DNA from: a virus
IMG/VR virus record: IMGVR_UViG_3300048929_000433
Location: 1 to 64,000 of that record
Strand: one strand, 5' to 3'
Length of the DNA stretch: 64,000 bases
The position numbers and the translations under genes are program-made. Below are positions 1,489 to 32,319 of the stretch, piece after piece (positions within the stretch are counted from its first letter, which is position 1; the number at the start of each line of letters is the position of its first letter). The notes beneath the pieces were generated by a model. That model did not search any database. It saw only the letters and a program-made list of their open reading frames with translations, and was not told the origin of the DNA.

Positions 1489-1688
1489 GCCACATTCCTT
1501 TTTTTATAATCATTGGCGATTCGGACGTCGCCGCGCGCTCCGCCTTGCCTCTTGCGATTCCGCTCCGAACAAACCGCCTGCAAAGCCCTCTGGCGCGTTG
1601 AATCAAACCGTCCGCTACCCTAGCAGCCCTAGTACATCACGCGTACCAGCGGCCTCCGTAGCGCGTACCGCGGCGAATCACTTTGCCA

Positions 1689-1713
1689 ACAAAAAAGCCG
1701 CCCAAAGGGCGGC
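1689..1713 (-). terminator. intrinsic terminator after 1767..2003
   Basis: Minus strand reads GCCGCCC-TTT-GGGCGGC followed by TTTTTT. Confidence 0.7.
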
Positions 1714-1766
1714 TATTCGTCAGCATGCCTATCGGACATGCAAATTTTTGATCTGTCAAGCCGGTA

Positions 1767-2003
1767 TCAGCTCATTACCGGCCGGCTTTGATCCGCGGAA
1801 ACTTCGCAAGAAACCATCCGGAAAATCGCAATCCCTTTCGCGCTCAATTCGCGCGCCTTTTCCGGGCTGATCTTTTCCGCGAAGCGCGCGCGGTCCGTTG
1901 CGCGCTCAATGGCGGTTGCCTCATCCTTTGCGAACAAACGGATATGAAAGTCGCAACCGGTGGCAATGCGGCGGATAGTGATCTGGTAAGCGGTCGTTTT
2001 CAT
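1767..2003 (-). CDS. hypothetical protein (78 aa)
   Basis: Track ORF flanked by its own promoter (2034-2062) and terminator (1689-1713). Confidence 0.6.
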   Translation of the reverse strand: MKTTAYQITIRRIATGCDFHIRLFAKDEATAIERATDRARFAEKISPEKARELSAKGIAIFRMVSCEVSADQSRPVMS

Positions 2004-2033
2004 TTGCTGGCGTCCTCTGTTCTGTTGACCCTG

Positions 2034-2062
2034 ATTTAGTACGTTGTCCGTACTACGTCAAG
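2034..2062 (-). promoter_or_regulatory. early promoter copy 1
   Basis: CTTGAC-GTAGTACGGACAACGTA-CTAAAT (17-nt spacer; perfect GTACG-N5-CGTAC dyad). Confidence 0.7.
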
Positions 2063-2083
2063 CCCGGATCCGAAATTATTTCC

Positions 2084-2109
2084 AAAAAAAAGCCCGGACT
2101 AATCCGGGC
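2084..2109 (-). terminator. intrinsic terminator after 2099..2269
   Basis: Minus strand: GCCCGGA-TTAG-TCCGGGC then T8. The hairpin overlaps the stop codon. Confidence 0.75.
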
Positions 2110-2269
2110 TTTCGATTGTTCGCAGTCCGTTGCAAACCGGGCAGGTGACTCCCGGTTGCCTGTCATGCGTCCGCGGCAAGTCCGGAATAACTTTGTCCGG
2201 ATCCAATAGCTTGCCTATTCCCTCGCAATGCGGACAAGGAATCCGCCGCGGTCTCATTTTAAAAATCAT
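2099..2269 (-). CDS. small DnaJ-type zinc-finger protein (56 aa)
   Basis: CPHCEGIG and CPVCNGLR (CxxCxGxG-like). Start moved to ATG 2269, which forms an ATGA overlap with the upstream stop. Confidence 0.55.
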   Translation of the reverse strand: MIFKMRPRRIPCPHCEGIGKLLDPDKVIPDLPRTHDRQPGVTCPVCNGLRTIESPD

Positions 2270-2418
2270 TGCCGGGCCCTTGCTAGTGCTTTCTGGCATT
2301 CCGCTAACCAGCGTTCAAAATCCGCGCGCGCGGCCATGTCGCGGTAGCCGCTCGCCTTCCATTTGGCGAAAGCAATTTCCTTTCGCGCGTAGGCGATTTG
2401 TCCGCCGGCCGGCATCAT
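2266..2418 (-). CDS. hypothetical small protein (50 aa)
   Basis: ATG at 2418 overlaps the stop of 2415..2702 (ATGA coupling). Confidence 0.4.
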   Translation of the reverse strand: MMPAGGQIAYARKEIAFAKWKASGYRDMAARADFERWLAECQKALARARQ

Positions 2419-2702
2419 GTCGCGGCCTTTGGCAAGCGATAGGCCTGCAATCCGTCGTGACCCCATGCCGGATCATTCCGCAGACCATGCAAGCATGCAT
2501 GTCCGTTCCAGAGTCGCGCGTTGTACCAATAGACGCTGGCAAGCTTATCTTTCCAGCTCCGCCCGTGCTTCGCTGCAAAGGCCTGCAGCGCGGCCGATTC
2601 GTCCGCGGTCAATTCCCGGATCCCAACGAAAACAGGTGAACCGTTTTCGATTGCGCGATTGACGGCCGCGCGCAGTGCATTATGTGGCGCATTGTTTGGC
2701 AT
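2415..2702 (-). CDS. hypothetical protein (95 aa)
   Basis: Start moved to MPNNAPHN (2702), because the track start 2756 lies inside the -10 box of promoter 2755-2783. Confidence 0.55.
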   Translation of the reverse strand: MPNNAPHNALRAAVNRAIENGSPVFVGIRELTADESAALQAFAAKHGRSWKDKLASVYWYNARLWNGHACLHGLRNDPAWGHDGLQAYRLPKAAT

Positions 2703-2754
2703 GGTCTCAGATCCCTTTGCAGCTGGCGCCGTCGGCGCCGTTTCCATATCCCTC

Positions 2755-2783
2755 ATTTAGTACGTTATCCGTAACACGTCAAG
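2755..2783 (-). promoter_or_regulatory. early promoter copy 2
   Basis: CTTGAC-GTGTTACGGATAACGTA-CTAAAT. Confidence 0.7.
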
Positions 2784-2792
2784 CCCTAAGCG

Positions 2793-2818
2793 AAAAAAAA
2801 GCCCGGTCGAAACCGGGC
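2793..2818 (-). terminator. intrinsic terminator after 2825..3712
   Basis: Minus strand: GCCCGGT-TTCG-ACCGGGC then T8. Confidence 0.75.
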
Positions 2819-2824
2819 CCTTTG

Positions 2825-3712
2825 TCACCATCCCATTTTATCCCGGCATATCGGACCGATTCCAAGTCGCTTGCTTTCCGCATTGGTTAGCGTCGCGTTG
2901 CAAATACAGCAGACTCCCGTTGTCTGTCCGTAGGCCTCCGCGGCGCCTTTCGGATCCGCGATGAATCCCAGGATCTCCGCGGACCGCTCCGCGCTGCAGT
3001 CGCGCGTTGCATGAAACTTTCCGCCGGCAATCTTGCCAAGATAAGTTCCGCGCTCTTTCACATAGAGCGCGCCAGCGTTCTTTGACGCGGCGCCGGCCGG
3101 GCTGATGACAGTGCAGCCAATCGTAATTTTTGGCGTCCTCATTTTCAGACCCTTTGCCGCGGCGTAGGCAACCGCTGAGTCGAACGCGGCTTTAAGCCGG
3201 TCAATCCCTGCATCGTCGACGCTAGGCGCGTTAGCGGCCTTCTCTGTCCGTTCTGCAGCCCTTGCCGCGTCGCGCGCGATTCCGTTGTTAACAACGGCCA
3301 GCTGCTTATCCGTCAAAGATCCAAACCGCTTTGCCGAGTCCAGCAGGCTAGCGGCCAGATCCCAACGCGGCGCCGTCGCTTCAAGCCATGCCGCGGCCTC
3401 GGGATTAGCCGCGGCGAAAGCGTCAAAGCCTTCCGCGGCAATTCTCGCCTTGCGGTCCGCCGCGCTGTTGCGCGCCTTTGCGCGGACGTCCGGGCTTGTC
3501 TTGAAAACATTCTTTCCCTTGCCCTTGCACGAAAAGCAATTGCCGATGATACGGCCAGCGTAGGAAATGAACTTGCCGGTTCCGCGGCATTTGGTGCAGC
3601 CTTCCGCGAACCGCTCGTTAGCCGGCTTGTATGCTGGCGCCGGCCGTACCGGCTCAATTCGAACCGGGCCCGTGTCGCCGTTGAAAAGGCCTTCTAAGCT
3701 ATCGTTAAACAT
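2825..3712 (-). CDS. hypothetical protein (295 aa) with N-terminal zinc-finger pair and C-terminal GxCCxC...GIGPxC motif
   Basis: CTKCRGTG and CFSCKGKG near the N-terminus. The C-terminus GVCCICNATLTNAESKRLGIGPICR resembles the DUF6011 motif (recalled, not searched). Confidence 0.7.
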   Translation of the reverse strand: MFNDSLEGLFNGDTGPVRIEPVRPAPAYKPANERFAEGCTKCRGTGKFISYAGRIIGNCFSCKGKGKNVFKTSPDVRAKARNSAADRKARIAAEGFDAFAAANPEAAAWLEATAPRWDLAASLLDSAKRFGSLTDKQLAVVNNGIARDAARAAERTEKAANAPSVDDAGIDRLKAAFDSAVAYAAAKGLKMRTPKITIGCTVISPAGAASKNAGALYVKERGTYLGKIAGGKFHATRDCSAERSAEILGFIADPKGAAEAYGQTTGVCCICNATLTNAESKRLGIGPICRDKMGW

Positions 3713-3742
3713 TTGTTCCGCTCCACTGTTCTGATAACCCTG

Positions 3743-3771
3743 ACTTAGTACATACTACGTACTACGTCAAG
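3743..3771 (-). promoter_or_regulatory. early promoter copy 3
   Basis: CTTGAC-GTAGTACGTAGTATGTA-CTAAGT. Confidence 0.7.
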
Positions 3772-3783
3772 CCCTAAGCGGAA

Positions 3784-3810
3784 ATAAAAAAGCCCGGCAA
3801 ACGGCCGGGC
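3784..3810 (-). terminator. intrinsic terminator after 3816..4142
   Basis: Minus strand: GCCCGGC-CGTTT-GCCGGGC then TTTTTTAT. Confidence 0.7.
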
Positions 3811-3815
3811 TTGTT

Positions 3816-4142
3816 TCAACGGTTTGCATGCAATTCGGCTAACCCGCGTTTGATCTCTTGCGCGCGCTGCTCTATTTCGTCCGGATCCCGAGTCGGTAGC
3901 AGCGGCAATGCCGGCGGCAACGTGATAGGTCCGCCGCGAAGCGCGACCAATAGCTCCTCATGCCGTCGCTTTTCTTCCGCCTGCTTTTTCAGGTTTGGCA
4001 GGCATGCGACTAGGATCAATCCCAGCAGCGGCGAAAGCAAAAGCGCGGAAAGAAAAAACCAGCCGACTCCGTTGCGGCCTTTTGAACTCGCGACAATCCC
4101 GGCAACGATTGCCAGTGTAAACCAGAAAATAAGCAGTAGCAT
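3816..4142 (-). CDS. small membrane protein (108 aa, 2 TM segments plus charged tail)
   Basis: MLLLIFWFTLAIVAGIVA and GWFFLSALLLSPLLGLILVACLP hydrophobic segments. Shares the GW..LSAL.SP..G.I.L motif with 36342..36524. Confidence 0.6.
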   Translation of the reverse strand: MLLLIFWFTLAIVAGIVASSKGRNGVGWFFLSALLLSPLLGLILVACLPNLKKQAEEKRRHEELLVALRGGPITLPPALPLLPTRDPDEIEQRAQEIKRGLAELHANR

Positions 4143-4179
4143 TTTGACTCCATTGTGCGACCTTGCCGCGGTTTGATGT

Positions 4180-4266
4180 TTAGAAAATTCCCAGCTCTTG
4201 AATCGTCAGCGCAATCGGCAGACTCAACGCGACGACTGCCGCGGCTATGTTGCGAAGTGTTTTCAT
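4180..4266 (-). CDS. possible 28-aa hydrophobic peptide
   Basis: Hand translated MKTLRNIAAAVVALSLPIALTIQELGIF. Its ATG lies 1 nt after the stop of 4268..4495. Below the ORF-track size cutoff. Confidence 0.3.
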   Translation of the reverse strand: MKTLRNIAAAVVALSLPIALTIQELGIF

Positions 4267-4267
4267 T

Positions 4268-4495
4268 TCAGTATCCGGCCCAATCGCGCAACGCCTTGAA
4301 GCCTTGCGTCCAATGGATCCGCTCCTCATGATGAGTTATCGATTTGTCCGGGTGCAGCTGAGAATAACGGTCCAGTACGGCTATCGTACCGTCCGCGTTA
4401 TCGGCCAGGAACCAATCATGGTTCCGGGCCCATCTGATTTGCGACGCGTCAAGCATGACGCGCGCCACCATCACAAAAGTTCCGAACCAGTGCAT
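4268..4495 (-). CDS. hypothetical protein (75 aa)
   Basis: Track ORF; first gene behind promoter 4556-4584. Confidence 0.55.
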   Translation of the reverse strand: MHWFGTFVMVARVMLDASQIRWARNHDWFLADNADGTIAVLDRYSQLHPDKSITHHEERIHWTQGFKALRDWAGY

Positions 4496-4555
4496 TCAGG
4501 ATTGCGTTAATCAGTCTCATGGCCAACTCCGTTTCCCGTTGTCTTGATATCCATT

Positions 4556-4584
4556 ACTTAGTACGTACTACGGACTATGTCAAG
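4556..4584 (-). promoter_or_regulatory. early promoter copy 4
   Basis: CTTGAC-ATAGTCCGTAGTACGTA-CTAAGT. Confidence 0.7.
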
Positions 4585-4744
4585 CGCAACGGGAAACTAT
4601 TTTTCGAAAGATCCTAGCCTAGCGTTTCCAGTTCCCTTTCCAGCGGTTGCCAATCCGCGCAAGTCCATTGCGACCAATTGCGCGACATGTCCGAAAGGAT
4701 CCGGATGATTGCCGCGCGTCGCTTGCGCTGCTTTGCTGTTAGCC

Positions 4745-5278
4745 TCATGACACGGGACTCAGATCAAACTTTTCGCCTAGCCATTGGACAAACGTTGACG
4801 GCCGCTCGCCCATTGTAAAGGCCTGTTCTGTCCGCTCCTCATGATCCGTTACCAGATCCGCGTAAGCCCATTGCCGGCTTGCTTCCATCTTACATTCCCG
4901 GATGAATTCATCCGACAAATGGCGCCGCGCGACCATTGACGCCACGTTATGCGGCGCCGGCAATTCAACGCCGCTAGTCGTTTGCGCGCCGTCGACGTTG
5001 ACAAAGTCCAGTATCATCGGAATCACTTCCCAATCGTAAGCAATGCCGTCGAAAAAATCGCGGTCGTGCTTTGTGCAGATATCGTAAACCTGCAAAGCCC
5101 ATTGCCCCAATTCAATCGACCAATGGCGCAACTCCGCGGATCCGGTATTTTTCCGCAACGCTTCCCAATCGTTCCGCGTTGTGGCGCCGCCTACGCCTAG
5201 CGTCCAATCGTTGATGCATTCCCATACGCAAAGCGCGGCCTCGACTTCAAGATAGGAAAATTTCGTTTCCGTTGTCAT
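4745..5278 (-). CDS. hypothetical protein (177 aa)
   Basis: Track ORF behind promoter 5307-5335; no motif recognised. Confidence 0.65.
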   Translation of the reverse strand: MTTETKFSYLEVEAALCVWECINDWTLGVGGATTRNDWEALRKNTGSAELRHWSIELGQWALQVYDICTKHDRDFFDGIAYDWEVIPMILDFVNVDGAQTTSGVELPAPHNVASMVARRHLSDEFIRECKMEASRQWAYADLVTDHEERTEQAFTMGERPSTFVQWLGEKFDLSPVS

Positions 5279-5306
5279 GCTAGTTCCCTCTGTTTCGATT
5301 GCCCTA

Positions 5307-5335
5307 ATCTAGTATGATATACGTATCACGTCAAG
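5307..5335 (-). promoter_or_regulatory. early promoter copy 5
   Basis: CTTGAC-GTGATACGTATATCATA-CTAGAT (the most diverged spacer). Confidence 0.65.
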
Positions 5336-5342
5336 CCCTAGA

Positions 5343-5370
5343 CAAAAAATAACCCGGCTCAATGCCGGGT
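5343..5370 (-). terminator. intrinsic terminator after the ArdC cassette
   Basis: Minus strand: ACCCGGC-ATTGA-GCCGGGT then TATTTTTT. Confidence 0.7.
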
Positions 5371-5454
5371 TTCTTTTGCCTCCTTTGCTTGTTCCAGTCG
5401 CCGCAACATTTCATTGAGCCATGCAAGCCGGGCCCGGATCTCCGCGGCCGTCAT
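5359..5454 (-). CDS. possible 31-aa helical peptide coupled to the ArdC-like gene
   Basis: ATGA overlap with the ArdC stop. Reads MTAAEIRARLAWLNEMLRRLEQAKEAKETRH, with its stop inside the terminator loop (hand translated). Confidence 0.3.
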   Translation of the reverse strand: MTAAEIRARLAWLNEMLRRLEQAKEAKETRH

Positions 5455-6347
5455 GCCGCTATCGCCATTTCGTCCGCCGGCATGTCCGCGGCCAGTACCG
5501 CGGACCGTAGGAAGTCCGCGGCCTTTTGCGCCGCGCTCGCCGCGGTAAAGAACGCCTTTGAATCATCCTTTAGCAATTCGATCCAATTGGCCACATAGCC
5601 GGCATGTCTCAATTCGCCGTCAATATTGAACTCCGCGCAAAGGAACGCCGCGGCCAGCTCCGCAACAAGTTCCTCCGCCGCATAAGCCCGGTCTCCGAAC
5701 CGCTTTCCGAATTCGCGATTCAAACGATGCTTTGCGCCGGTCCAATGCGCCAGCTCATGAAAGCCGGTTGCGTAGTAATTCGCGGCGCCGTTGAAAGCTT
5801 CAAATGCCGGCATAGCAATGAAGTCCGTTGACGGGGAATAATAAGCCCGGTCTCCGCCAACGTCCGCGCGAAAGTCCGCGCCGGTTGCCGCGATGAATTC
5901 ATCAATCGTTGCGTCGCGCTCATCGTTGTGGCGCGGCTTGACCGGATCCGGGCAAACAATCGTTGCCGGCAAGTTTTCGCATTGGTCGACGTTGAAAACC
6001 GTATAGGCGCGCAGCATGGTAAACCCCTTGCCTTGCTCGCCGGTTTCCTCGTTTTTCTTGCCGGCCAGCGGCTTGACGAAATAGACCGTAAAACCATGCT
6101 CGCCTTTCTTGACGTTGCCGCCTAAGCCTTTGGCTTGCTTGAACGTCATGTAACGCGGCGTTGCGAACCGGCCGGCGGACAGCCAAAGCAGGACAACGTT
6201 GCAGCCCGAATACGGCCGGCCGGTTGCCGCGTTGTGCGGTATGTTGCGGCCAGGAGTCGCGGACCATGGCTTAACCCATGGCGCCGAACCGGTTTCCAGC
6301 TCCGCCAAGATCCGCGCCGTAACGTTCTGGTAAAGATTGTTTGCCAT
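5451..6347 (-). CDS. ardC: ArdC-like antirestriction protein (N-terminal ssDNA-binding domain plus zincin metalloprotease-like domain)
   Basis: N-terminus NVTARILAELETGSAPWVKPW... plus an HEXXH motif (GFHELAHWTG), typical of the ArdC/DUF1738 family. 298 aa. Confidence 0.88.
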   Translation of the reverse strand: MANNLYQNVTARILAELETGSAPWVKPWSATPGRNIPHNAATGRPYSGCNVVLLWLSAGRFATPRYMTFKQAKGLGGNVKKGEHGFTVYFVKPLAGKKNEETGEQGKGFTMLRAYTVFNVDQCENLPATIVCPDPVKPRHNDERDATIDEFIAATGADFRADVGGDRAYYSPSTDFIAMPAFEAFNGAANYYATGFHELAHWTGAKHRLNREFGKRFGDRAYAAEELVAELAAAFLCAEFNIDGELRHAGYVANWIELLKDDSKAFFTAASAAQKAADFLRSAVLAADMPADEMAIAA

Positions 6348-6377
6348 TGCTCAATTCCCTCTGTTTCGATAACTGGT

Positions 6378-6406
6378 ATTTAGTACGTACTACGGACAAC
6401 GTCAAG
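6378..6406 (-). promoter_or_regulatory. early promoter copy 6 (drives the ArdC-like gene)
   Basis: CTTGAC-GTTGTCCGTAGTACGTA-CTAAAT. Confidence 0.7.
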
Positions 6407-6434
6407 CGGAAAAGAACAGGGAACCGAAATTATT

Positions 6435-6857
6435 TTATGCCGCAATCGGCATTGCTTCGCGCGCGCGTTCCAGCTCCGCCGCTTCGCGCGCTCGCTTGTC
6501 CGCCATTGCCGCGTCATACATGCTTTGCCAAACCGCCGGCTTGCGCGCGCGCCGCTCCGCGCTCGGCGCCGCTAGCAACGCCGCGCGCTGCTTTGCCTGC
6601 ATTGCCTTATGGATTGCGGCGCCGGTATTGTGATTCGTTCCGCTTGCGCAATTGCAATTGTGCGAAGTGTAAACGCGCTGCAGTTCCGCGCGCTGCTTTG
6701 CCCGGATAGCGGTTTCAACGGCCAAGCCATACGCCTGACGTGCTTCGCGCGTCATGGCCTGCAGTCCGTTGCGCGCGGCCTTGCGATGCTTATCAAGCCC
6801 GGCAAGTGTCGGATATTCCGGACCGATGAAACGGCCGCTTGAATCTGTCAATCTCAT
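6435..6857 (-). CDS. hypothetical protein (140 aa, Ala/Arg-rich helical)
   Basis: Start moved to MRLTDSS (6857), which has GGAG 8 nt upstream. The track start would overlap 6869..7051. Confidence 0.55.
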   Translation of the reverse strand: MRLTDSSGRFIGPEYPTLAGLDKHRKAARNGLQAMTREARQAYGLAVETAIRAKQRAELQRVYTSHNCNCASGTNHNTGAAIHKAMQAKQRAALLAAPSAERRARKPAVWQSMYDAAMADKRAREAAELERAREAMPIAA

Positions 6858-6868
6858 TTGCTCGACTC

Positions 6869-7051
6869 CTATTCCGGCAAGTTTTTGTAAAGCGTTTTCA
6901 GCTGCTGAATCTCCGCGTAGCGTTCCGGCCACGTCACGCGAAGCGTAGGCCAATCAATGCCGTACTGAGTCCCGCCTGCCGCGTCGCGATAGCAAGCGTT
7001 GATGATTGCGTTATAGCGGCGCCGAACGCCGCGCTTTGACTTGATCGCCAT
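6869..7051 (-). CDS. hypothetical protein (60 aa)
   Basis: Track ORF directly behind promoter 7074-7102. Confidence 0.5.
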   Translation of the reverse strand: MAIKSKRGVRRRYNAIINACYRDAAGGTQYGIDWPTLRVTWPERYAEIQQLKTLYKNLPE

Positions 7052-7073
7052 TTCAGATCCCTTTCGTTGTCTG

Positions 7074-7102
7074 GTATCTAGTACGGATTGCGTACTATGT
7101 CA
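7074..7102 (-). promoter_or_regulatory. early promoter copy 7
   Basis: CTTGAC-ATAGTACGCAATCCGTA-CTAGAT (perfect dyad). Confidence 0.7.
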
Positions 7103-7134
7103 AGCGGACGTCTGCTAATTTCCCAGGATCCGGC

Positions 7135-7662
7135 TTAGGCGTTTGCGCGCCTATCCTCCGCCATACGCTGGTAGCTTGCGTCATTAGGAACGCCGCGGAT
7201 CATTCGCGCGGAATTGTCCGGGCAAACCTGATTCTCTAGCTCATACGTGAAATATTTTCCGCCGCGATTGACGCGCAACAAAAGCGAGTCGGCATGCAAA
7301 CCAGCGTCCGCAACATAACCGTTTGTGTGATAGTCCGGATGAAAGCAGAACGCTATTTCGTCACCTGCCCTAAGCGTTTTCAGAATGCTGGAAACCGGCG
7401 TATGCTGATTATGATAAATCGAAACCAGCTCAAAGCATGACGCGGCGCCGCGCTCTAACGCGTCACGGCCGCGCGTCGTTTCGAGTCGCGTCTCGCAATT
7501 TTCCAGCGAATATTCTTGATCCGTCTCAAATGGTGCGGCGTTGTATGGCTTGCGCTTGATAAGCACGACGCGGCCGGCCGGATAAGCCGGCGTATTGAGA
7601 TGAATCGAAATTTGGTCCGCCTTGCGAATAGCGGCAATGTCCGTTTTGGTAAGAGCAGCCAT
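7135..7662 (-). CDS. hypothetical protein (175 aa)
   Basis: Start moved to MAALTKT (7662, GAGGG upstream). The track start 7728 lies inside promoter 7711-7739. Confidence 0.6.
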   Translation of the reverse strand: MAALTKTDIAAIRKADQISIHLNTPAYPAGRVVLIKRKPYNAAPFETDQEYSLENCETRLETTRGRDALERGAASCFELVSIYHNQHTPVSSILKTLRAGDEIAFCFHPDYHTNGYVADAGLHADSLLLRVNRGGKYFTYELENQVCPDNSARMIRGVPNDASYQRMAEDRRANA

Positions 7663-7710
7663 TTTAGAATTCCCTCGATTGCGCCGCGGCGCCGTTTGCT
7701 GATATCCGGT

Positions 7711-7739
7711 ATTTAGTACGTACCGCATAACATGTCAAG
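7711..7739 (-). promoter_or_regulatory. early promoter copy 8
   Basis: CTTGAC-ATGTTATGCGGTACGTA-CTAAAT. Confidence 0.7.
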
Positions 7740-7748
7740 CGCAATCGG

Positions 7749-7777
7749 AAAAGAAAAAGCCCGGATCCTGTCCGGGC
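7749..7777 (-). terminator. intrinsic terminator after 7786..8445
   Basis: Minus strand: GCCCGGA-CAGGA-TCCGGGC then TTTTTCTTTT. Confidence 0.75.
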
Positions 7778-7785
7778 TTTTCCGT

Positions 7786-8445
7786 TCAATCAAACCTTTC
7801 GCCGTCCGCGGTGAATTCATAGGCGTTTGCCGCGATTGTCTCCGCCACGTTTTCATCGCTTATGGAAAAAAAGTATTCGTTCTGCAGCTGCAAATAAATC
7901 CAATCGGCGAAACCGCGCAACGCCTTAATCACTCTCACCTCGTTTTCGCGCGTCACCTCCTTTTCGTCGCCGTCCGCGTCCAATGCCGTGACGTCAACTT
8001 GCATCATGCCGCTATGGCAGTACCTATGCCCGGATAGCGTCACGTTTGCCGCTAAGCGTCGCTGATAAGTTTCCTGCAGCGCGTCCAGCTCCGCCGCGAT
8101 AGCGTGCAACGTCTCATCAGTAGGCGCGTAGGCCTTGACGCGCTCTAGCGCGGATCCGGTTTCGAACGAAACCAAATTGCCCTCAAAACTGGCGCCGTCG
8201 CCTTGTGACGAAAAGCCGGACCAATAGATAGCCGGCTCATGCCGGACCCTGCCGCTAACGGTTTTAATGTCGCGCTGCTTGAATTCGATTCCCAGGAGTC
8301 CAGCAATCGCTTGCGCGTCCTCAATGACGGTTTCAGAATAATGGTTATCGTCCGCGCTCGCTTCGCGGTACCAGTCGCGCGCCTTTGACTTCGCGCGCTC
8401 GCTCAATTCGCCGTACTGGTAAACCGTGGTTTCAACGACTCTCAT
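7786..8445 (-). CDS. hypothetical conserved phage/plasmid protein (219 aa)
   Basis: Start MRVVETTVYQYGELSERAKSKARDWYRE at 8445, forming an ATGA overlap with 8442..8717. Confidence 0.65.
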   Translation of the reverse strand: MRVVETTVYQYGELSERAKSKARDWYREASADDNHYSETVIEDAQAIAGLLGIEFKQRDIKTVSGRVRHEPAIYWSGFSSQGDGASFEGNLVSFETGSALERVKAYAPTDETLHAIAAELDALQETYQRRLAANVTLSGHRYCHSGMMQVDVTALDADGDEKEVTRENEVRVIKALRGFADWIYLQLQNEYFFSISDENVAETIAANAYEFTADGERFD

Positions 8446-8717
8446 GACTCGATTCCTTTTCCGTCCGAAAACTTGACGCCGCAACGTTCCATCGTTGCCT
8501 TGACGTTTGCCACATAAGCCGGGTTATCAGTCCGGGCCATTTCCGCCTTGAACGCGTCGCGCCACTTGGCAGGAATCGCGCGGCCGTTTTCCATATAGGC
8601 CAGCGGCCAAGCGGAATAATTCGGCGCGTCTTGCCTTGTGTCGGTTAGCGCGCAAGCGCTGCAATTATCCGGATCCTGTCCTTTGCAGCCCGGATAATGG
8701 CTGAATTCATTCGTCAT
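8442..8717 (-). CDS. hypothetical protein (91 aa)
   Basis: Track ORF behind promoter 8747-8775. Confidence 0.6.
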   Translation of the reverse strand: MTNEFSHYPGCKGQDPDNCSACALTDTRQDAPNYSAWPLAYMENGRAIPAKWRDAFKAEMARTDNPAYVANVKATMERCGVKFSDGKGIES

Positions 8718-8746
8718 TGTGCTTCCCTCTGTTTCCGTTGCCGGCT

Positions 8747-8775
8747 AGTTAGTACGTATCGCGTAACACGTCAAG
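8747..8775 (-). promoter_or_regulatory. early promoter copy 9
   Basis: CTTGAC-GTGTTACGCGATACGTA-CTAACT. Confidence 0.7.
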
Positions 8776-8782
8776 CGCTAAA

Positions 8783-8944
8783 TCAATGCGATTTAGGTTT
8801 GTATGGCGCGAAAAATTCATGGCCTATTTCGTCCGCCAGCGTTGCACCGTCGCCTCGTTTGCTCAATGCTGGCGCGTTTCGATCGGCCGCGGCCAGCGTC
8901 GCGCAAACGATACATATGCCGATAAGGTTTAGAATTATTTTCAT
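8783..8944 (-). CDS. possible small secreted protein or lipoprotein (53 aa)
   Basis: ATGA overlap with 8941..9186. Reads MKIILNLIGICIVCATLAAADRN... (signal-peptide-like; hand translated, below the track cutoff). Confidence 0.4.
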   Translation of the reverse strand: MKIILNLIGICIVCATLAAADRNAPALSKRGDGATLADEIGHEFFAPYKPKSH

Positions 8945-9186
8945 CCGGCCGGGCTTTCAATCAACGCGGTATAAGTCGAACAATCCGCGGCCAGCGTTCC
9001 GAATTGCCGCGCGTCATGCCAGCTCATAAAACCAGCGTCCTCACAATCGACTATCGATCCGCCTAGCCATTTGGCGAAAGCGTCTGCTTGCCGGATCTCC
9101 GAGTCTGCCATGTCGCCGCAATCGCCGTTGATGAAATAGCAAGCCCAATAACTCGGCGCCGTTCCTGTTACGGTTTCCAATGCCAT
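8941..9186 (-). CDS. hypothetical protein (81 aa)
   Basis: Track ORF. Confidence 0.55.
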   Translation of the reverse strand: MALETVTGTAPSYWACYFINGDCGDMADSEIRQADAFAKWLGGSIVDCEDAGFMSWHDARQFGTLAADCSTYTALIESPAG

Positions 9187-9189
9187 GAC

Positions 9190-9606
9190 TCAAACCTCCA
9201 ATTTCGTCACGGTTGATTCCAGCGTTTCCATATCTTTCAGAAAGTTTTCTTTGCGTCGCTGAATTGCGTCCCACGTTATTGACTTCGCGGCCGTCGCGTT
9301 GACCGCGTCCCACATTGCTTTTTCCGCCTGCCGCGACGTCCGAAACGCGCCTTCAAGATCCGTCCGGCTAATCACCGTTCCGAACAAATCGAAAAGCGTA
9401 TAGCGGAAACCGCGCCGGCTATTCTCAAAGTCCAAAGCGTCGCTTGTGACGATTGCGAACAAAAGCCCGGCATGCGTCGACCGCGCGGAAACGATTCGCG
9501 ACTTGTGAAAGCGCAACGTGTCCGGATCCACAAAATGAGTCCGTCCCATAAGATTCTTTTGCGCATTGATAGCCGGATGGCTCGATTGATTGCTGTAAAG
9601 TTCCAT
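9190..9606 (-). CDS. hypothetical protein (138 aa)
   Basis: Track ORF behind promoter 9636-9664. Confidence 0.6.
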   Translation of the reverse strand: MELYSNQSSHPAINAQKNLMGRTHFVDPDTLRFHKSRIVSARSTHAGLLFAIVTSDALDFENSRRGFRYTLFDLFGTVISRTDLEGAFRTSRQAEKAMWDAVNATAAKSITWDAIQRRKENFLKDMETLESTVTKLEV

Positions 9607-9635
9607 TGTCTCACCTCGTTTGTTTGATGGCTGTT

Positions 9636-9664
9636 ATCTAGTACGTATCTCGTACTATGTCAAG
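9636..9664 (-). promoter_or_regulatory. early promoter copy 10
   Basis: CTTGAC-ATAGTACGAGATACGTA-CTAGAT (perfect dyad). Confidence 0.7.
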
Positions 9665-9677
9665 CATGACTCAAAAA

Positions 9678-10070
9678 TCAGTCGCCGATATAAGCATACC
9701 AGCGGCCGTTATCGCCTTTGTAGATCATGCCGGAAACCTGACCTTGCTCCGCGGCTTTCTGATACTCCTCCTCCGAGTCGAAATGCTCCATTTCCCGGAT
9801 CCGGCTAGCAATCTCTTGCGTTACCAGCGCGTTCAAGTATGCGTCAGACCATGCCGCCATTTCGTCCGCGGACCATGCTCCGAATCCTTTGAAGTATCGC
9901 CGCGCGTTTTCCCGCATGGCCTCATCCGTCAAAAGCAAATGCTTTGCGGCATAGGCTAGCGAATTGTTCCAAGTAATTTTGCCAGCGTCCGGACCTAGCT
10001 CCGCCTGACTTCCCGACAATGTCGGCATATCGTCCGAGTCGTCGACCATATGCGTTATGTCAATTTCCAT
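9678..10070 (-). CDS. hypothetical acidic protein (130 aa)
   Basis: Track ORF behind promoter 10103-10131. Confidence 0.6.
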   Translation of the reverse strand: MEIDITHMVDDSDDMPTLSGSQAELGPDAGKITWNNSLAYAAKHLLLTDEAMRENARRYFKGFGAWSADEMAAWSDAYLNALVTQEIASRIREMEHFDSEEEYQKAAEQGQVSGMIYKGDNGRWYAYIGD

Positions 10071-10102
10071 TTGCCTGTTTCCCTCTGTTGCGTTCGATTG
10101 CT

Positions 10103-10131
10103 AGTTAGTACGTTATCCGTACTAAGTCAAG
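10103..10131 (-). promoter_or_regulatory. early promoter copy 11
   Basis: CTTGAC-TTAGTACGGATAACGTA-CTAACT (perfect dyad). Divergent from copy 12 across a 42-bp A/T-rich gap. Confidence 0.7.
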
Positions 10132-10173
10132 CGAACCGGCAAAAACTTTTTTCGAATCTTTTTCATCTTTTCG

Positions 10174-10202
10174 CTTGACGTTGTACGGACCGCGTACTAG
10201 AA
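10174..10202 (+). promoter_or_regulatory. early promoter copy 12 (rightward)
   Basis: CTTGAC-GTTGTACGGACCGCGTA-CTAGAA (perfect dyad). Confidence 0.65.
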
Positions 10203-10235: not shown

Positions 10236-10397
10236 ATGATAACGAAAACATTCGAACCGGTCCGGCCACTCGCCGCGCCAGACAACGGCTCCGCCTTCTA
10301 TCATGTCGGAGTTTTCGGCCAGCAGCGCGTTCACTATGGCGAAAGCCATTGGCCAAGCCGCGGCTATTGGATGGTCCCCGGAACAACCGGGGACTGA
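10236..10397 (+). CDS. possible 53-aa ORF downstream of promoter copy 12
   Basis: ATG with AAAGG 7 nt upstream. Reads MITKTFEPVRPLAAPDNGSAFYHVGVF... (hand translated). Could instead be the 5' part of a non-coding RNA. Confidence 0.3.
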   Translation: MITKTFEPVRPLAAPDNGSAFYHVGVFGQQRVHYGESHWPSRGYWMVPGTTGD

Positions 10398-10814: not shown

Positions 10815-10871
10815 GATGGCCCTCAAACGACATCGCAAAAATTAACACGCTAGTCCCTTGGGTTTTTGCCG

Positions 10872-11007: not shown

Positions 11008-11607
11008 CACGATCGCGCTTGGCCTTGATACGGATTTCGTACCGGACTTCTGTGTGCTCCCGACTTTCGCGCGCTGGCCTTGCGTCGACCAGAACGCGGC
11101 CAGCATCTGCAAGCCGGCGCGCAACGCTTCGATCTCAGTGAAACCGACCGGCGCCAGATCTCGCTCGCAGACCGCTTCGACAACGCGCACGGAAGCCGCA
11201 CCAGCGTGCCCGAGCGCCACGATGCCGCTCTCGTAGTCCTCGACCTTGCGCGCGTGCCTACGGGCTTCCCTGGCGCCTGACGCCGTATCCGGATCCGGGC
11301 TGGTACCGCCCGACGGATCGAGTGCGGCCGTTCGCGGTGCGCGCGGCGCCAGCGTCGCTTGCGCATACTCCTCGACCATCCGGCACCAACGTCGGCCGGC
11401 GGCGTACTGCGTCTCGGAGATCCGACCAGCCAGGTACAGCCGCCCGAGCATCGTGCCCCACTCCGCCGGCCGCATGCCGGCGACCGCGGCATCCATCAAT
11501 CGGCGGGTCTCCGTCGGCGGCGGCAAGGCCTGTTCCCGATGTTGTGCCCGAGCCCGCTGCGGCTTGCCGTTAGCCTCCCGCCGGACCAGGTTCTTACGCT
11601 TACCCAT
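10999..11607 (-). CDS. hypothetical protein (202 aa)
   Basis: Track ORF. Its 3' end runs into the last iteron. No motif recognised. Confidence 0.55.
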   Translation of the reverse strand: MGKRKNLVRREANGKPQRARAQHREQALPPPTETRRLMDAAVAGMRPAEWGTMLGRLYLAGRISETQYAAGRRWCRMVEEYAQATLAPRAPRTAALDPSGGTSPDPDTASGAREARRHARKVEDYESGIVALGHAGAASVRVVEAVCERDLAPVGFTEIEALRAGLQMLAAFWSTQGQRAKVGSTQKSGTKSVSRPSAIVKP

Positions 11608-16923: not shown

Positions 16924-17799
16924 TTAGGCTGCTTCGGTTGCGGTGGTGGTTGCGGGAAGGCTGTGATCGACCGGATGCCGCGGGATGCTGCTGGCGATCT
17001 TGGCGAGCAGCTTGTTGAGGTGCGGCTCCTCGATCTGGTCGAGCTTGCCGCTGCGGTCCTTGGCCGGGAATTTCCAGGGATTCGGTGAGTTGCAGACCAG
17101 GCAACGAACCTGTTCGCCGTCGCCGAAATCGATGAACTGCATCACCAACATTTCGTCGACGATGCCGGGCAATTCCTTGCCGGTCTTTGAGCCCTCGATC
17201 TGCAGATCCCAGGACGAAATGTTGAACTCATCCTTCGAGTATTCGAGGATGCCGATGAAGATGACATTCTTGTCGCGCGCATGCTGCAGATGGGTCAGCC
17301 AACCAATCATCTGGCGCCCCATCAGGCCGTAAGTGCCGAGCAGATTCTTTTTTCCGCGCTCGTTGAAACTCTCCGGCTGCTGTTCGCTCCAGCGGAAACA
17401 AAGCCGGCCGGCGACCGTGATCGAATCGATGAAGTACGTGCTGTATTTTTTCAGTGCGTCCGCGGTGCCGCCCATCGACTCCACCACGGCATCGTAATGC
17501 GCCTGGCTGTAACATTCGGTGGCTGGCAAGGATGGGTTTGGACCGCCGAGATAGCAGGCGAGATCGCGGCATTCATCCCAGGTCCGCGGCTGGAACGTGT
17601 CGACCTTGAGATCCCGCACGGCCAGATCGCCGGCTTCGAGATCGACGAACAGTGTACTGTCCGGATCCAGCGTGCGCAGCAGCGTCGTCTTGCCGACGCC
17701 GGCCGGCCCGGCAATCAACGCTTTGACGCCCTTGTCCTGCGCCATCCGCTCATCGGCGGTGATGATGCGCAGTCGTCGTGGCAGCAGCTCCATTTTCAT
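16924..17799 (-). CDS. AAA_24-type (Sak4-like) phage ATPase
   Basis: Walker A GPAGVGKTT near the N-terminus. Size and neighbourhood are typical for this family. Confidence 0.85.
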   Translation of the reverse strand: MKMELLPRRLRIITADERMAQDKGVKALIAGPAGVGKTTLLRTLDPDSTLFVDLEAGDLAVRDLKVDTFQPRTWDECRDLACYLGGPNPSLPATECYSQAHYDAVVESMGGTADALKKYSTYFIDSITVAGRLCFRWSEQQPESFNERGKKNLLGTYGLMGRQMIGWLTHLQHARDKNVIFIGILEYSKDEFNISSWDLQIEGSKTGKELPGIVDEMLVMQFIDFGDGEQVRCLVCNSPNPWKFPAKDRSGKLDQIEEPHLNKLLAKIASSIPRHPVDHSLPATTTATEAA

Positions 17800-20069: not shown

Positions 20070-20389
20070 AGTCCCTTCTCCCTTTCCAACAGTTGATCGG
20101 CGACGGCGCCGATGATGCTCAATGGATTGTTCTGAGAGTCGCGCGTGATGGCGTGCGCGATGCTCTCGACCAGGACTTCATGTTGAAAGTTGAGCGACAT
20201 CAGGATGGCGGCGTCGCGCGCCATCGCCTCGATCGCTTCGCCGGAACGGCCAGCTCCGATGAATACTTCGGAGATCCGGCCGGTCGAGAAACGTCCGAAC
20301 GAAACCAGGTGGCCACGCGTCAGGCCGCCCCATGGTAGTTCGAACGTTTCGCAACCCCGGCGTTGCGGCAATATCAGGCGCTCGGTCAC
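20066..20389 (-). CDS. hypothetical protein (107 aa, GTG start)
   Basis: GTG at 20389 overlaps the GcrA-like stop (GTGA), with GGAGG 6 nt upstream. Confidence 0.5.
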   Translation of the reverse strand: MTERLILPQRRGCETFELPWGGLTRGHLVSFGRFSTGRISEVFIGAGRSGEAIEAMARDAAILMSLNFQHEVLVESIAHAITRDSQNNPLSIIGAVADQLLEREKGL

Positions 20390-20898
20390 AGGCGCCTCCG
20401 CATCGGTACGTATTGCGTAGCGGGGATGTGCACCTTGCGATCGTGCCAGATGCAATAGGACGAACCTTCGACCTTCGGTTCGCTGCAACAGGCGAACGGG
20501 TAATCGTCATAGAGCCAGCGGCACAGGCTGATGTCCTGGCGAATGATCGGCAGCGTCGCCACCCGCAAATGGCTGCGGTCGACCTGGATCGAAGGTGGCC
20601 GGGCTGGCGCCGAAACCGCGACCGGTGACACGATGCCCGTGCGAGCGCGAGATGGTCGCGGCTTGTACTGCGGCTTCGGCAGCTCGCGAGATGGCAGCTT
20701 CAACCGGATAGCCTTACCGATCACCTGGTTGCGCGAGATCGGCACATCGAACTCGGCGCTGAGGATGGTGGCGATCTGGCGGGCGCTGTGCTGGGGGCGC
20801 AGCGCAATCAACCGCTCGGTCAATTCGGGCTTGGTGAGCCACGGCCCGCTGTCCTTGTTGCGGCTCCGGGGGTTGGTTCGGCGGCGATTTCGGGCCAT
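20386..20898 (-). CDS. gcrA: GcrA-family cell-cycle regulator homologue
   Basis: N-terminal HTH SARQIATILSAEFDVPISRNQVIGKAIRLKL and C-terminal CRW...ACC...GSSYCIWH, as in GcrA. Confidence 0.82.
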   Translation of the reverse strand: MARNRRRTNPRSRNKDSGPWLTKPELTERLIALRPQHSARQIATILSAEFDVPISRNQVIGKAIRLKLPSRELPKPQYKPRPSRARTGIVSPVAVSAPARPPSIQVDRSHLRVATLPIIRQDISLCRWLYDDYPFACCSEPKVEGSSYCIWHDRKVHIPATQYVPMRRRL

Positions 20899-23500: not shown

Positions 23501-24022
23501 ATGACCAAGACCTTCGAGCGATCAGAAATCACCGATACAATTGTTCGTTACCTAGCCGGCCATCCCAAGGGCAGCCGGGTCAGCTACGCCGACCTTTCCA
23601 GCCAGGCGGCCTGCGATATCCAGGCCGGCGACGGCCACCTCCAGTACGCTAAGAAGATCCTGGAAAAGGAACACCTGCAGGTATGGGTGGCCATCAAGCC
23701 TGGCGCCGGCATCAAGCGGTTGACCGACCGCGAGATCGCCGAGCGGATCCCGAACTGGCACCTCCGCGGCGCCCGCAACAAGCTGAAACGCGGCGATAAC
23801 GAAAGCCGCATTGTCGAGACGTCGCAGCTGTCGATCGATGAGCAGGCCCGCTTCTCGGTCAACTCGATCCAACAGCAGCTGGCGCTGCAGACCCTGTCTA
23901 AGTCGACGATGCAGCGCTTGGAAAAGGTCGCCCGCGGCAAGTCGAATGATTTGCCGGCCTTCAACGCGGTCGAATGGGCGTTCGCCCTGATGCCGCGCCG
24001 TCAGAAGGATGCCGGAAAATGA
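23501..24022 (+). CDS. hypothetical protein (173 aa)
   Basis: Track ORF. Confidence 0.65.
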   Translation: MTKTFERSEITDTIVRYLAGHPKGSRVSYADLSSQAACDIQAGDGHLQYAKKILEKEHLQVWVAIKPGAGIKRLTDREIAERIPNWHLRGARNKLKRGDNESRIVETSQLSIDEQARFSVNSIQQQLALQTLSKSTMQRLEKVARGKSNDLPAFNAVEWAFALMPRRQKDAGK

Positions 24023-25175
24023 AGTCTCAGCTTCGCTCCGCGATGTTCCGCTCCGCCCCACTGCTCAGTGCGGCGCTGCGCGTCACGTCGCGGCGCGTCG
24101 CCCCGCTTCGCTTCTCACCTCTACGCAACGAAATTGTCTTGTTCCATTTTTCGGCGCAACGCTTCTCGTCTCGCCACTACGCTACGCCGCTCGTCACTGC
24201 GCACTGCAACGCAACGCCGCCCAATGTCCTCTCAGCTCTACACTGCACCCCGCGCCGCGGCTCACCACCTCGCACGGCATCACTTCTCATCTCTCCTCAA
24301 CGCCACGCAACAATTTACTTTATTCATTTCCGTCGCACCGCATCTCTACGCGCCACCTCTCAGCACCACGCTCCTCTCCACATCACGTCACCGCGTCTCG
24401 CCTCACCTCACGACACAACGCAACGATTTCGTTTGGCAATTTTTGCCACGCAACGCCACTCCGCACAGCGCTCCGCTCCTCGCGGCCTCTCCGCTCACCG
24501 CTCGGCATCCCTCCGCAACGCCTCACCACTCCCTGCCCCGTCGCACCCCGCCCCACTCCGCAGCACCCCGCCACACGACACGTCTCGACGCAACGATTTT
24601 CATTTTGGTTTTTACTCCGCTGTGCATCTCGTCACCACGCTTCGCGTCTCAGCACTCCACTCCGCATCTCATCGCCACACATCGTATCGCAGCACGGTGC
24701 ATCCCGACACGACGCAACGTTTTTCATTTGGCAGTGGCGATTTTGCTGGCGCAACGCCTCACGTCTCAGCGCCTCGCACCGCACTACGCCACACCGCAAC
24801 GCAACGCATCTCTCGGCACCGCTCCGCTTCTCAGCGCTACACAACGCAACGCCATGCCGCTCCGCGCTCGACTTCACTCCGCGCCACAACGTGCCGCGCC
24901 TCTACGCATGGCTGCACAGCTCAACTCAGCTCGACGCAACGATTTTGTTTTTATGCTTTCCGCGCCGCACCTCAACGCGCCACATCGCATCGCCCGGCAC
25001 CTCGTCACAACACGACACGACGCTCCGATATACTTTATTTATTTCCATCGCATCGCTTCTCAGCTCAGCGCTCCGCCGCGCGACACGACACCGCACGCCA
25101 CCCCGCTTCTCAGCGCTTCGCGACGCACCGCAGCTCCGCTCATCGCACCACAATGCAACGCCACATCTCCAAGAG
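24023..25175 (+). repeat. 1.15-kb strand-asymmetric C-rich modular tract, stop-free in all three forward frames; judged non-coding
   Basis: No TAA, TAG or TGA in any register. Recurrent ACGCAACG, GCTCCGC and TCTCAGC words. Seven T-rich punctuation blocks. Confidence 0.85.
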
Positions 25176-25190
25176 TAACGGAGGATTCTA

Positions 25191-25502
25191 ATGGCTGAAC
25201 GCGCTCATCTCGAACGGCTCTCCCGCGAATTGGTCGACGCCGGCTTGCTGGTCGAGGCAGGCTGGATTGGGCTGCGGATCGCCTGCGACCTCCATGACGC
25301 ACCGAAACAGCAGCTTGAGGACATGCGCAATGCATTCTTTGCCGGCGCGCAGCACACCTTCCATTCGATCATGAACATCCTGGAGCCCGGCGCCGAGCCG
25401 ACCGAGGCCGACCTGCAGCGCATGACCAACATCGATCAGGAACTACGCCGCTTTATCGAGGACTTCGAAGTCCGGCACATCAAAACTGTCGGCACAGCGT
25501 GA
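25191..25502 (+). CDS. hypothetical protein (103 aa)
   Basis: Track ORF with GGAGG 8 nt upstream. Confidence 0.65.
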   Translation: MAERAHLERLSRELVDAGLLVEAGWIGLRIACDLHDAPKQQLEDMRNAFFAGAQHTFHSIMNILEPGAEPTEADLQRMTNIDQELRRFIEDFEVRHIKTVGTA

Positions 25503-32014: not shown

Positions 32015-32247
32015 CTAAAGGACACACCGAAGCCGAAGGCTACGTTGCGAGTCTTCGGCAGATGGCTCAATGGATCAGAGACGGCAATGCCGCAGATCCT
32101 GATGAGCTGGACGCCGCGGCGGAATTCATCGAGCGCCACGCCCGGTTAAGCCGGGTGGATGCCGCGCTGGCCGGCCAGCTCGGGCGATCGATGCAAGAGA
32201 ACGCCCGGCTGAAAATCCGGCTGGCAGAGCTGGAACAAGGTCAGTAA
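32011..32247 (+). CDS. hypothetical coiled-coil protein (78 aa), coupled to int
   Basis: ATGA overlap with the int stop. Confidence 0.5.
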   Translation: MTKGHTEAEGYVASLRQMAQWIRDGNAADPDELDAAAEFIERHARLSRVDAALAGQLGRSMQENARLKIRLAELEQGQ

Positions 32248-32255
32248 ACCAGACC

Positions 32256-32284: not shown

Positions 32285-32319
32285 TTAGGTTTCATTGGAA
32301 CCATAAAGGAGAATCACCC

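Follow-up and report, generated by a model that had tools for sequence, protein, structure and literature searches.

The 64,000-nucleotide stretch of viral DNA analysed here (positions 1 to 64,000 of IMG/VR record IMGVR_UViG_3300048929_000433, hereafter the window) carries 15 copies of a promoter element, CTTGAC-N17-CTA, twelve of them gathered in its left arm. A HigA-family protein is encoded behind one of the other three copies. The initial annotation had taken the element for a plain promoter; this reading does not stand, as the 17-nt spacer also carries a conserved 19-bp dyad, TnGTACG-N5-CGTACTA, that matches the autoregulatory promoter-operator of higBA toxin-antitoxin (TA) operons. Judged from the sequence, the array is probably a promoter-plus-HigA-operator regulon under a single repressor. 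The window has temperate-type content, including an integrase, a CI/DicA-like repressor and Mu/P2-type baseplate genes.

The promoter element and the dyad in its spacer

CTTGAC-N17-CTA matches the window exactly 15 times, compared with a mean of 0.21 and a maximum of 3 in 100 dinucleotide-preserving shuffles of the window. The copies, numbered P1 to P15 from left to right, include eleven on the minus strand of the left arm (2.0-10.2 kb; 26-mers between 2037 and 10131) and one on its plus strand (10174); the remaining three lie at 32256 (+), 36313 (-, edge of the 26-mer) and 40670 (+). Our recount agrees with the initial annotation on the 15 copies, the invariant CTTGAC, the exact N17 spacer and the GTACTA junction found in 14 of the 15 copies (copy 5 reads ATACTA), and its coordinates hold for all but copy 7, whose 29-mer lies at 7076-7104 and not at 7074-7102. 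The -10 box reads C-T-A-n-n-T, with T29 in 14 of the 15 copies. Both hexamers and their spacing match the alphaproteobacterial/rhizobial sigma-70 consensus CTTGAC-N17-CTATAT (PMC2873474), in line with the earlier assignment to housekeeping-sigma promoters. Each copy is followed by a leader of 25-45 nt, a GAGGGAA-type ribosome-binding site and a start codon, also as described before. Mean pairwise identity between copies is 0.78 within the 26-mer and 0.29 and 0.37 in the two flanks; the longest exact run common to two copies is 18 nt, and the median is 9. The leader is conserved too, from +27 to +52 after each CTTGAC (for example 2010-2036 and 6355-6380), with T29, G34, A37 (A in 13 of the 15 copies) and then ATCAgAAACAGAGGGAA. 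This conservation exceeds the needs of a ribosome-binding site and could reflect a shared signal in the 5' untranslated region or a trace of common descent. A37 also lends indirect support to transcription starting ~7 nt past the -10 box. A generic Escherichia coli-type promoter scan flags P5 only and is uninformative for this motif.

The dyad is placed between the -35 and -10 boxes, is centred on position 17 of the element and takes in the opening CTA of the -10 box. Information content across the 15 window copies reaches about the same level at T8, T11, A12, C13, G14, A16, A19 and C20-A26 as in the -35 box, and positions 7, 9, 15 and 17 vary freely among copies and orthologues. A larger set of 47 copies (39 unique) was assembled from the window and its relatives L218, L219, L157, L169 and L136 by CTTGAC-N17-CTA alone, leaving the spacer unconstrained, and all of them have the dyad. 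Among the 39 unique copies, the left half-site is kept at T8 in 36, T11 in 38, A12 in 35, C13 in 35 and G14 in 37, and the right half-site at C20 in 36, G21 in 38 and T22 and A23 in all 39; the pairs 11-23, 12-22, 13-21 and 14-20 are complementary in 34-38 of the 39. When searched for on its own with at most one mismatch, the dyad is found 21 times in the window against 1.06 in shuffles, and 15 of the 21 matches are inside promoters. Matches outside promoters include 36299-36317, which overlaps the P14 start region, 40537-40555, 33478-33496, 11026-11044 and 3547-3565, one of these additional dyads being 133 nt upstream of P15. Such sites may serve as auxiliary operators or may have arisen by chance.

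The dyad centre is ~20 nt upstream of the predicted start site and within a spacer that already has the optimal length of 17 nt, and this placement appears to be a repressor position. We considered whether the copies are simply strong housekeeping-sigma promoters without a dedicated regulator, kept alike by promoter strength or by recombination or gene conversion of the kind seen in promoter-early/stem-loop (PeSL) cassettes. The match to the rhizobial consensus (PMC2873474) and the likeness of the terminator-promoter composites and their mosaicism to PeSLs (PMC2839356) speak for this explanation. However, T8, T11-G14 and C20-A23 are not known to be needed by RNA polymerase and yet are as invariant as the hexamers, so that a second factor must select them. 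The free variation at positions 7, 9, 15 and 17 argues against wholesale conversion. As described below, higBA operons of several phyla are marked by this dyad too, and no relative examined is without a solo HigA. We therefore regard unregulated promoters as a very unlikely explanation. Readings of the motif as an extracytoplasmic-function sigma promoter, a LexA box or a CtrA box were discarded, as spacing and sequence misfit, and MerR-like activation was ruled out, as the spacer is already 17 nt long.

A toxin-less HigA and its kinship with higBA operons

The proposed repressor is a 102-residue helix-turn-helix (HTH) protein of the HigA family, encoded at 32320-32628 (+), just downstream of the integrase gene. 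P13 (32256-32284, +; 26-mer 32256-32281), which has the dyad with G at position 11 (TTTGGACG), leads straight into this gene with no gene between, and higA is thus under its own promoter copy, 22-30 kb from the cassettes of the left arm. The protein matches TIGR02607, "HigA family addiction module antitoxin", with 101.9 bits against a cutoff of 47.7, and HTH_3 with an E-value of 7.7e-11; the nearest solved structures are VapI (3TRB), PaHigA (7CSV and 6JPI) and GraA (6F8H). It is 37-57% identical to 14 HigAs that adjoin the motif elsewhere, and residues V34, P35, N37, R38, I42 and R47 of the recognition region are invariant across all of them. HigB was not found in the 64-kb window, either by tblastn or with a hidden Markov model built from 17 HigB sequences (best E 0.36). 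The protein belongs by sequence to the HigA family, does not share an operon with a toxin and is best described as a solo regulator-type HigA. The C-terminal tail of this solo clade, PGPKI..., differs from the (E/Q)VxPRAA tail of toxin-paired HigAs, and the contact with the toxin may have been lost.

The nearest named homologues of the phage protein are from Bradyrhizobium, with 71-72% identity. In the chromosome of Bradyrhizobium sp. USDA 4508, an integrated element (L222; dyads at 9949-9967 and 10826-10844) has a toxin-less HigA, 71% identical and with the PGPKI tail, together with integrase, Fic and AIPR genes. The second of its dyads is just upstream of a resolvase gene, so that HigA and a recombinase gene are associated here much as they are through P14 in the phage.

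P13 is the only one of the 15 window copies with G11, a change in the left half-site, and G11 is common to the HigA promoters of L046, L047, L218 and L224. In the 52-kb lineage (L221), the right half-site of the HigA promoter is degraded instead. In each lineage, the operator of HigA itself is the most degenerate copy and hence predicted to be the weakest. These two independent weakenings would fit a repressor that needs to exceed the level at which its targets are silenced. Translational control by a hairpin at 32282-32309 (-11.7 kcal/mol) in the HigA leader was considered and rejected, as transcription is predicted to start downstream of its 5' arm.

Antitoxins of the HigA family are repressors of their own promoters, where they bind palindromes centred on ACGT, and PaHigA also represses mvfR via a copy of its palindrome (PMC6987408, PMC6393540 for the former; PMC6987408 for the latter). 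An activating role of the phage HigA, or reading of the motif by a phage-specific sigma factor, is extremely improbable. One phage HigA homologue is labelled 'transcriptional activator C1' in its GenBank record, with nothing more direct in favour of activation. The site lies between consensus hexamers of a promoter with optimal spacing, the characterised HigA relatives are repressors (PMC6987408, PMC6393540), and no sigma-factor family match was found among the ~50 of roughly 120 window open reading frames (ORFs) that were scanned.

The same module is found at higBA operons elsewhere. One genome per species of Bacteria and Archaea was scanned with the pattern CTTGACNTNNTACGNNNNNCGTACTA, which gave 41 loci, and in 21 of them the motif is directly upstream of higB-higA. 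These 21 come from Parvibaculum (five), other Alphaproteobacteria, Bradyrhizobium, Xanthobacteraceae, Gammaproteobacteria, Acidobacteria, Binatia and others. The HigB at motif loci is a 92-residue toxin starting MIRSFADKDT..., and the HigA is an XRE-family HTH antitoxin with ...HPGE.... A scan of metagenome contigs with the same pattern gave 80 loci, with higBA adjoining the motif in 42 and phage relatives accounting for 7. Starting from the protein alone, 18 of 80 viral higA loci have TnnTACG-N5-CGTAnnA (at most one mismatch) within 160 nt upstream of higB, where fewer than one would be expected by hand arithmetic rather than by a shuffle test. At the TA loci, the higB start codon is 9-13 nt after CTA; this spacing is compatible with transcription starting ~7 nt downstream of CTAnnT and implies a higB mRNA with little or no leader. 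Taken at the level of sequence, the phage module is the promoter-operator of a widespread higBA family. The higBA loci L223, L066 and L096 show another overlap of promoter and operator, with the -35 TTGAC inside the central 5 nt of the dyad.

The literature reports HigA homologues in 168 phage records. Viral contigs that encode a HigA homologue, of which 80 were scanned, have at most one motif copy within 20 kb, which indicates that the expansion is specific to this phage lineage. One candidate relative, P0080 (an 80-kb contig with a 59% HigA homologue), turned out to be an ordinary chromosomal higBA locus. Contigs of Moraxella metagenome-assembled genomes (GC content 42-44%) have the same promoter-operator, CTTGAC-ATAGTACGC-nnn-GCGTACTAtaat, at 4121-4146 (-) of L019 and at 3281-3306 (-) and 4182-4207 (-) of L020, with an AT-rich tract upstream and small ORFs of no assigned function downstream, apparently in another mobile element. 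No higBA was found in the DNA retrieved from these loci, and Pfam gave no match for the downstream ORFs. Here, in an element of Gammaproteobacteria, the module may have multiplied separately from the phage.

The wide occurrence of the module in hosts raises the question of which HigA is the binder. Host HigA or HigB-HigA might be the main one, silencing the cassettes or letting the phage read the TA state of the host, with the phage HigA mainly a decoy antitoxin; we consider this quite unlikely. An identical promoter-operator is present at chromosomal higBA of Parvibaculum, Bradyrhizobium, Xanthobacteraceae and other Alphaproteobacteria, and the recognition residues of those HigAs equal those of the phage protein. 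A phage orphan antitoxin acting in counter-defence is known for DarG (PMC11257639), and the toxin of GraTA acts as a de-repressor (PMC6393540). On the other hand, the phage and all its relatives encode an autoregulated HigA, sufficient to account for the regulon, and the tail of the solo clade departs from that of toxin-paired HigAs. A combined arrangement, in which the regulon is wired into host TA defence so that host HigA silences incoming cassettes or free HigB de-represses them by titrating HigA, and the phage HigA is both master repressor and decoy antitoxin, is also unlikely, if a little less so.

A solo HigA is found at the same locus, convergent with a DicA/CI-like gene, in every lineage from which the region was retrieved (L046, L218, L221 and L224). 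The HigA of L221 is 62% identical overall to the window protein, yet the stretch LSANALARELGVPPNRISSI is identical, and nine array promoters of this 52-kb relative keep the dyad. The convergent neighbour is a second XRE-family HTH protein (DicA/CI-like, 134 residues; 32952-33356, -). Its constant position beside higA would suit a true lysogeny repressor that binds the dyad, with HigA as just one of its targets. We judge this highly improbable, as the motif tracks HigA homologues and not DicA-like proteins in 63 independent higBA loci, and the core lytic operons are without a motif copy: in the motif count of the window, none was found at the replication operon (10.5-20.9 kb) or at tail and structural genes. 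Gene content varies between the integrase gene and the higA promoter; this stretch holds a 61-residue ORF in the window (32015-32255), genes for 152 and 76 residues in L046 (9241-9940) and several genes in L224 (6476-9940), and corresponds to 11395-11630 in L218 and to 8630-9913 in L221, which has an extra HTH gene and no integrase.

Cassettes, terminators and variation among relatives

The left arm has 12 transcription units by sequence, each headed by a copy of the element as the initial annotation had proposed; gene calls of the identical public contig place 19 genes in the 11 leftward units. P1 (2034-2062, -) precedes g78 (1767-2003), and P2 (2755-2783, -) precedes g95 (2415-2702) and g50 (2266-2418). 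P3 (3743-3771, -) leads to g295 (2825-3712), a DUF6011 protein with three CxxC motifs, and P4 (4556-4584, -) to g67 (4268-4471) and the hydrophobic membrane protein g108 (3816-4142). P5 (5307-5335, -), with the right half-site CATACTA, is followed by g177 (4745-5278) and orf44 (4614-4748), P6 (6378-6406, -) by the gene of an ArdC antirestriction protein (5451-6347), and P7 (7076-7104, -) by g60 (6869-7051) and g140 (6435-6857). Downstream of P8 (7711-7739, -) is g175 (7135-7662), and downstream of P9 (8747-8775, -) are g91 (8442-8717) and g219 (7786-8445). P10 (9636-9664, -) heads g138 (9190-9606), g81 (8941-9186) and g53 (8783-8944), and P11 (10103-10131, -) heads g130 (9678-10070). The divergent P12 (10174-10202, +) leads to orf53 (10236-10397), which encodes 53 residues; its substitutions relative to the 85%-identical L136 fall mainly at third codon positions (4/1/11), which marks orf53 as coding. 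Four-base gene overlaps are found at 2415-2418, 4745-4748, 5451-5454, 8442-8445 and 8941-8944, and those at 4745-4748 and 5451-5454 involve uncertain short ORFs, namely orf44 and a 31-residue ORF.

ArdC is confirmed by matches to PF08401 and PF18818, and g53 has a signal-peptide-like N-terminus. The other cassette products match only PHROGs of no assigned function or have no match (Pfam, PHROGs). The earlier label of an anti-defence island is thus backed by ArdC alone, the other products having no recognisable function. The g138 product (9190-9606, -) shows a weak NCBIfam similarity to the active-site region of the Shiga-toxin A subunit (E ~1e-3, far under the cutoff), which is probably noise; g138 is among the most variable cassettes, being missing from L157 and replaced in L002.

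Six intrinsic terminators noted before, all on the minus strand, have folding energies between -15 and -18 kcal/mol (z between -3.5 and -4.5), and a U-run follows each. They end the units of P1 (1689-1713; -18.2 kcal/mol, z -4.4), P2 (2084-2109; -17.9 kcal/mol), P3 (2793-2818), P4 (3784-3810), P6 (ArdC; 5343-5370) and P9 (7749-7777; -18.2 kcal/mol). Folding of the gaps gave no terminator upstream of P4, P6, P7 or P9 and only a weak hairpin in the P10 gap. The description of individually insulated cassettes therefore holds for 6 of the 11 leftward promoters, which have a strong terminator directly upstream, and not for the other 5. The degenerate copy reported near 1627-1655 is present as an operator-like dyad without a -35 box, TAGTACATCACGCGTACCA, at 1630-1648, between the terminator at 1689-1713 and g149.

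The window is part of a metagenome contig of 74,997 bp, and close relatives of the phage are all metagenomic. L046 (38.5 kb) has 94-98% nucleotide identity to the window, Logan SRR30692706_19796 (L218, L219; 44 kb) has 85-90%, and Ga0157290_10000040 (L157, L221; 52 kb) has 74-88%; Ga0606634_0000467 (L224) is a further lineage, and a 77-kb contig, k87-115675, is represented by the fragment L169 only. Megablast of the left arm against INPHARED phages gave no match, a search with the single HigA sequence as query found no close viral relative, and the integrase as query gave only relatives of 46-48% identity outside this phage group.

Among the relatives, promoter-gene units have been gained, lost, replaced or moved, and new units bring their own promoter-operator. 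L157 is without 2622-4459 (the DUF6011 and P4 cassettes) and 9186-9682 (P10 and g138); it has other DNA at 6824-7132 and 8445-8949, ~390 nt extra at 7763/7792, and the g53 homologue at a different position. L169 has a block of terminator, P5, g177 and orf44 inserted between the P9 unit and g81. In L002, g138 is replaced. L219 has an extra promoter with a 77-residue gene between g219 and P8, is without g53, and has g60 and g140 replaced; the P7 unit is replaced by other DNA in both L157 and L219. Presence and absence at the level of cassettes, a comparison proposed in the initial annotation, thus varies among relatives. Breakpoints at window positions 4603, 5338, 5372 and 7763 abut a promoter or terminator, those at 8445, 8949, 9186 and 9682 fall at gene starts or stops, and most breakpoints are gene edges. 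The idea of modular shuffling is supported as far as the units themselves are concerned; recombination from repeat to repeat is a candidate mechanism only, as copies share at most 18 identical bases and breakpoints are mostly at gene edges.

Two copies besides P13 lie outside the left arm. P14 (36310-36338, -) leads to a serine recombinase of the resolvase/invertase type (35651-36274) and downstream genes, and P15 (40670-40698, +) to g143 (40728-41159), for which no function was recognised. Elsewhere in the window, a homologue of the cell-cycle regulator GcrA (20386-20898, -; PF07750, 2.5e-9) heads the leftward replication operon and supports an alphaproteobacterial host. An AAA_24 protein is encoded at 16924-17799 (-; 1.1e-37); the family counts Sak4-type recombinases of phages among its members, and such an enzyme could help short or imperfect homologies, the promoter repeats among them, to recombine. 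At 23974-25198 (+), three ORFs of 376-405 residues overlap in all three plus-strand frames (GC skew -0.23); the 390-residue protein of the stored gene call (24019-25191) gave no Pfam match, and a search by protein found no viral relative. Rfam and tRNA scans of the window gave no match.

The proposed regulon and comparable systems

We propose that, at all 15 promoters, HigA dimers bound to the dyad between -35 and -10 would keep RNA polymerase out. One negative-feedback regulon would then comprise the 12 left-arm cassettes including ArdC, the recombinase-led operon, g143 and higA itself. On entry into a HigA-free cell, all promoters would fire together; the weakest operator, at higA, would let HigA accumulate enough to silence the other copies, and as HigA builds up the set would be shut down and kept low in the lysogen. 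Such a burst would be of use for antirestriction, a function required when the phage enters and not once it is induced. Aca (anti-CRISPR-associated) repressors have been described as working in this way at anti-CRISPR promoters (PMC8633003, PMC9410906). These burst-then-shut-off dynamics are more tentative than the regulon itself, and we put them at slightly less than an even chance.

Several points weigh against this proposal. Binding, repression and timing, and so every functional step, are deduced from homology and position. CTA is shared by the -10 box and the half-site, so its invariance is not assignable to RNA polymerase or to HigA alone, and the dyad could also be a site for host HigA or for the second XRE protein (32952-33356). 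In the complexes solved for PaHigA and GraA, two dimers are bound and flanking half-sites are required (PMC6987408, PMC6393540). ArdC is the sole cargo gene with a recognisable function. As the core replication and structural genes are without the motif, the main lysis-lysogeny repressor is probably a protein other than HigA; the DicA-like protein at 32952-33356, or the region at ~21.7-22.7 kb, is a better candidate for this switch.

The closest known systems are the promoters of higBA and graTA (PaHigA, GraA and Proteus vulgaris HigA), which likewise combine a TIGR02607 HTH protein with an ACGT-centred palindrome inside its own promoter. The phage differs in having no toxin gene, in the multiplication of the module at least 15-fold before unrelated genes, and in a leader of 25-45 nt with a ribosome-binding site where higB starts 9-13 nt after CTA. 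PaHigA of Pseudomonas aeruginosa also represses genes beyond its own operon (mvfR, pel) via palindrome copies (PMC6987408), but this concerns one or two host promoters and the toxin is kept, whereas here 14 phage promoters share the entire module. Aca repressors are autorepressors on the strong promoter of anti-defence genes, giving a burst and then shut-off, and Aca1 has been suggested to descend from an antitoxin (PMC8633003, PMC9410906). The phage protein resembles them, at the sequence level only, as a small HTH protein with inverted repeats in the promoter core. Aca is encoded in an operon with its cargo and usually acts on one promoter; the phage HigA has its own locus and 15 promoters, and only ArdC is a known anti-defence product.

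Lambdoid morons are self-contained promoter-gene-terminator units between other genes, with unrelated promoters and typically expressed from the prophage; all phage units here share one repressible promoter. The parallel to PeSLs of T4-type phages drawn in the initial annotation is apt as an analogy, with promoter/terminator composites among small ORFs and module variation in relatives. PeSLs also combine repeated sigma-70-like promoters and terminators with small ORFan genes in a hyperplastic region, where modules are inserted, deleted or replaced from one relative to another (PMC2839356, PMC4122927). PeSLs belong to lytic myoviruses, recombine with one another to cause indels, and form mini-circles. 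They differ from the present array in that this phage is temperate, its promoter carries an operator with a cognate repressor, a stem-loop is found at 6 of 11 units and copies share at most 18 bases. The array resembles PeSLs or morons in layout and evolution, but it is not a PeSL. Mycobacteriophages of the L5 type likewise use one phage repressor at tens of genome-wide sites, the stoperators (PMC9283540, PMC6550527). A stoperator is an asymmetric site of 13 bp, in most cases outside promoters and oriented with transcription, at which a monomeric immunity repressor stops elongation; here the sites are symmetric dyads, 15 of 21 of them inside promoters. Plasmid leading regions share arrays of small genes including Ard proteins, repeated promoters and expression at entry (PMC11541004), but they use single-stranded Frpo promoters, in contrast to the operator-bearing double-stranded promoters of the phage. 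A toxin-less phage HigA running multiplied copies of its own TA promoter was not found described in the literature searched, the coverage of which is incomplete.

As a practical search key, the 26-mer located, in three public collections, relatives of the phage as well as higBA loci from several phyla. With one 102-residue protein and one 19-bp site, the phage would offer a simple system for the timing and limiting of accessory or anti-defence genes such as ArdC, in which the spread of promoter-gene modules in temperate phages, and cross-talk between host TA systems and phage regulators via shared operators, could be tested. If host HigA does silence phage cassettes, this would be a new form of transcriptional immunity provided by TA systems. 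The array also suggests a route for the domestication of TA parts: the antitoxin outlives its toxin, and the promoter-operator, likewise retained, is placed in copies before many unrelated genes. The outcome would be a portable, self-limiting expression module for phage accessory genes.

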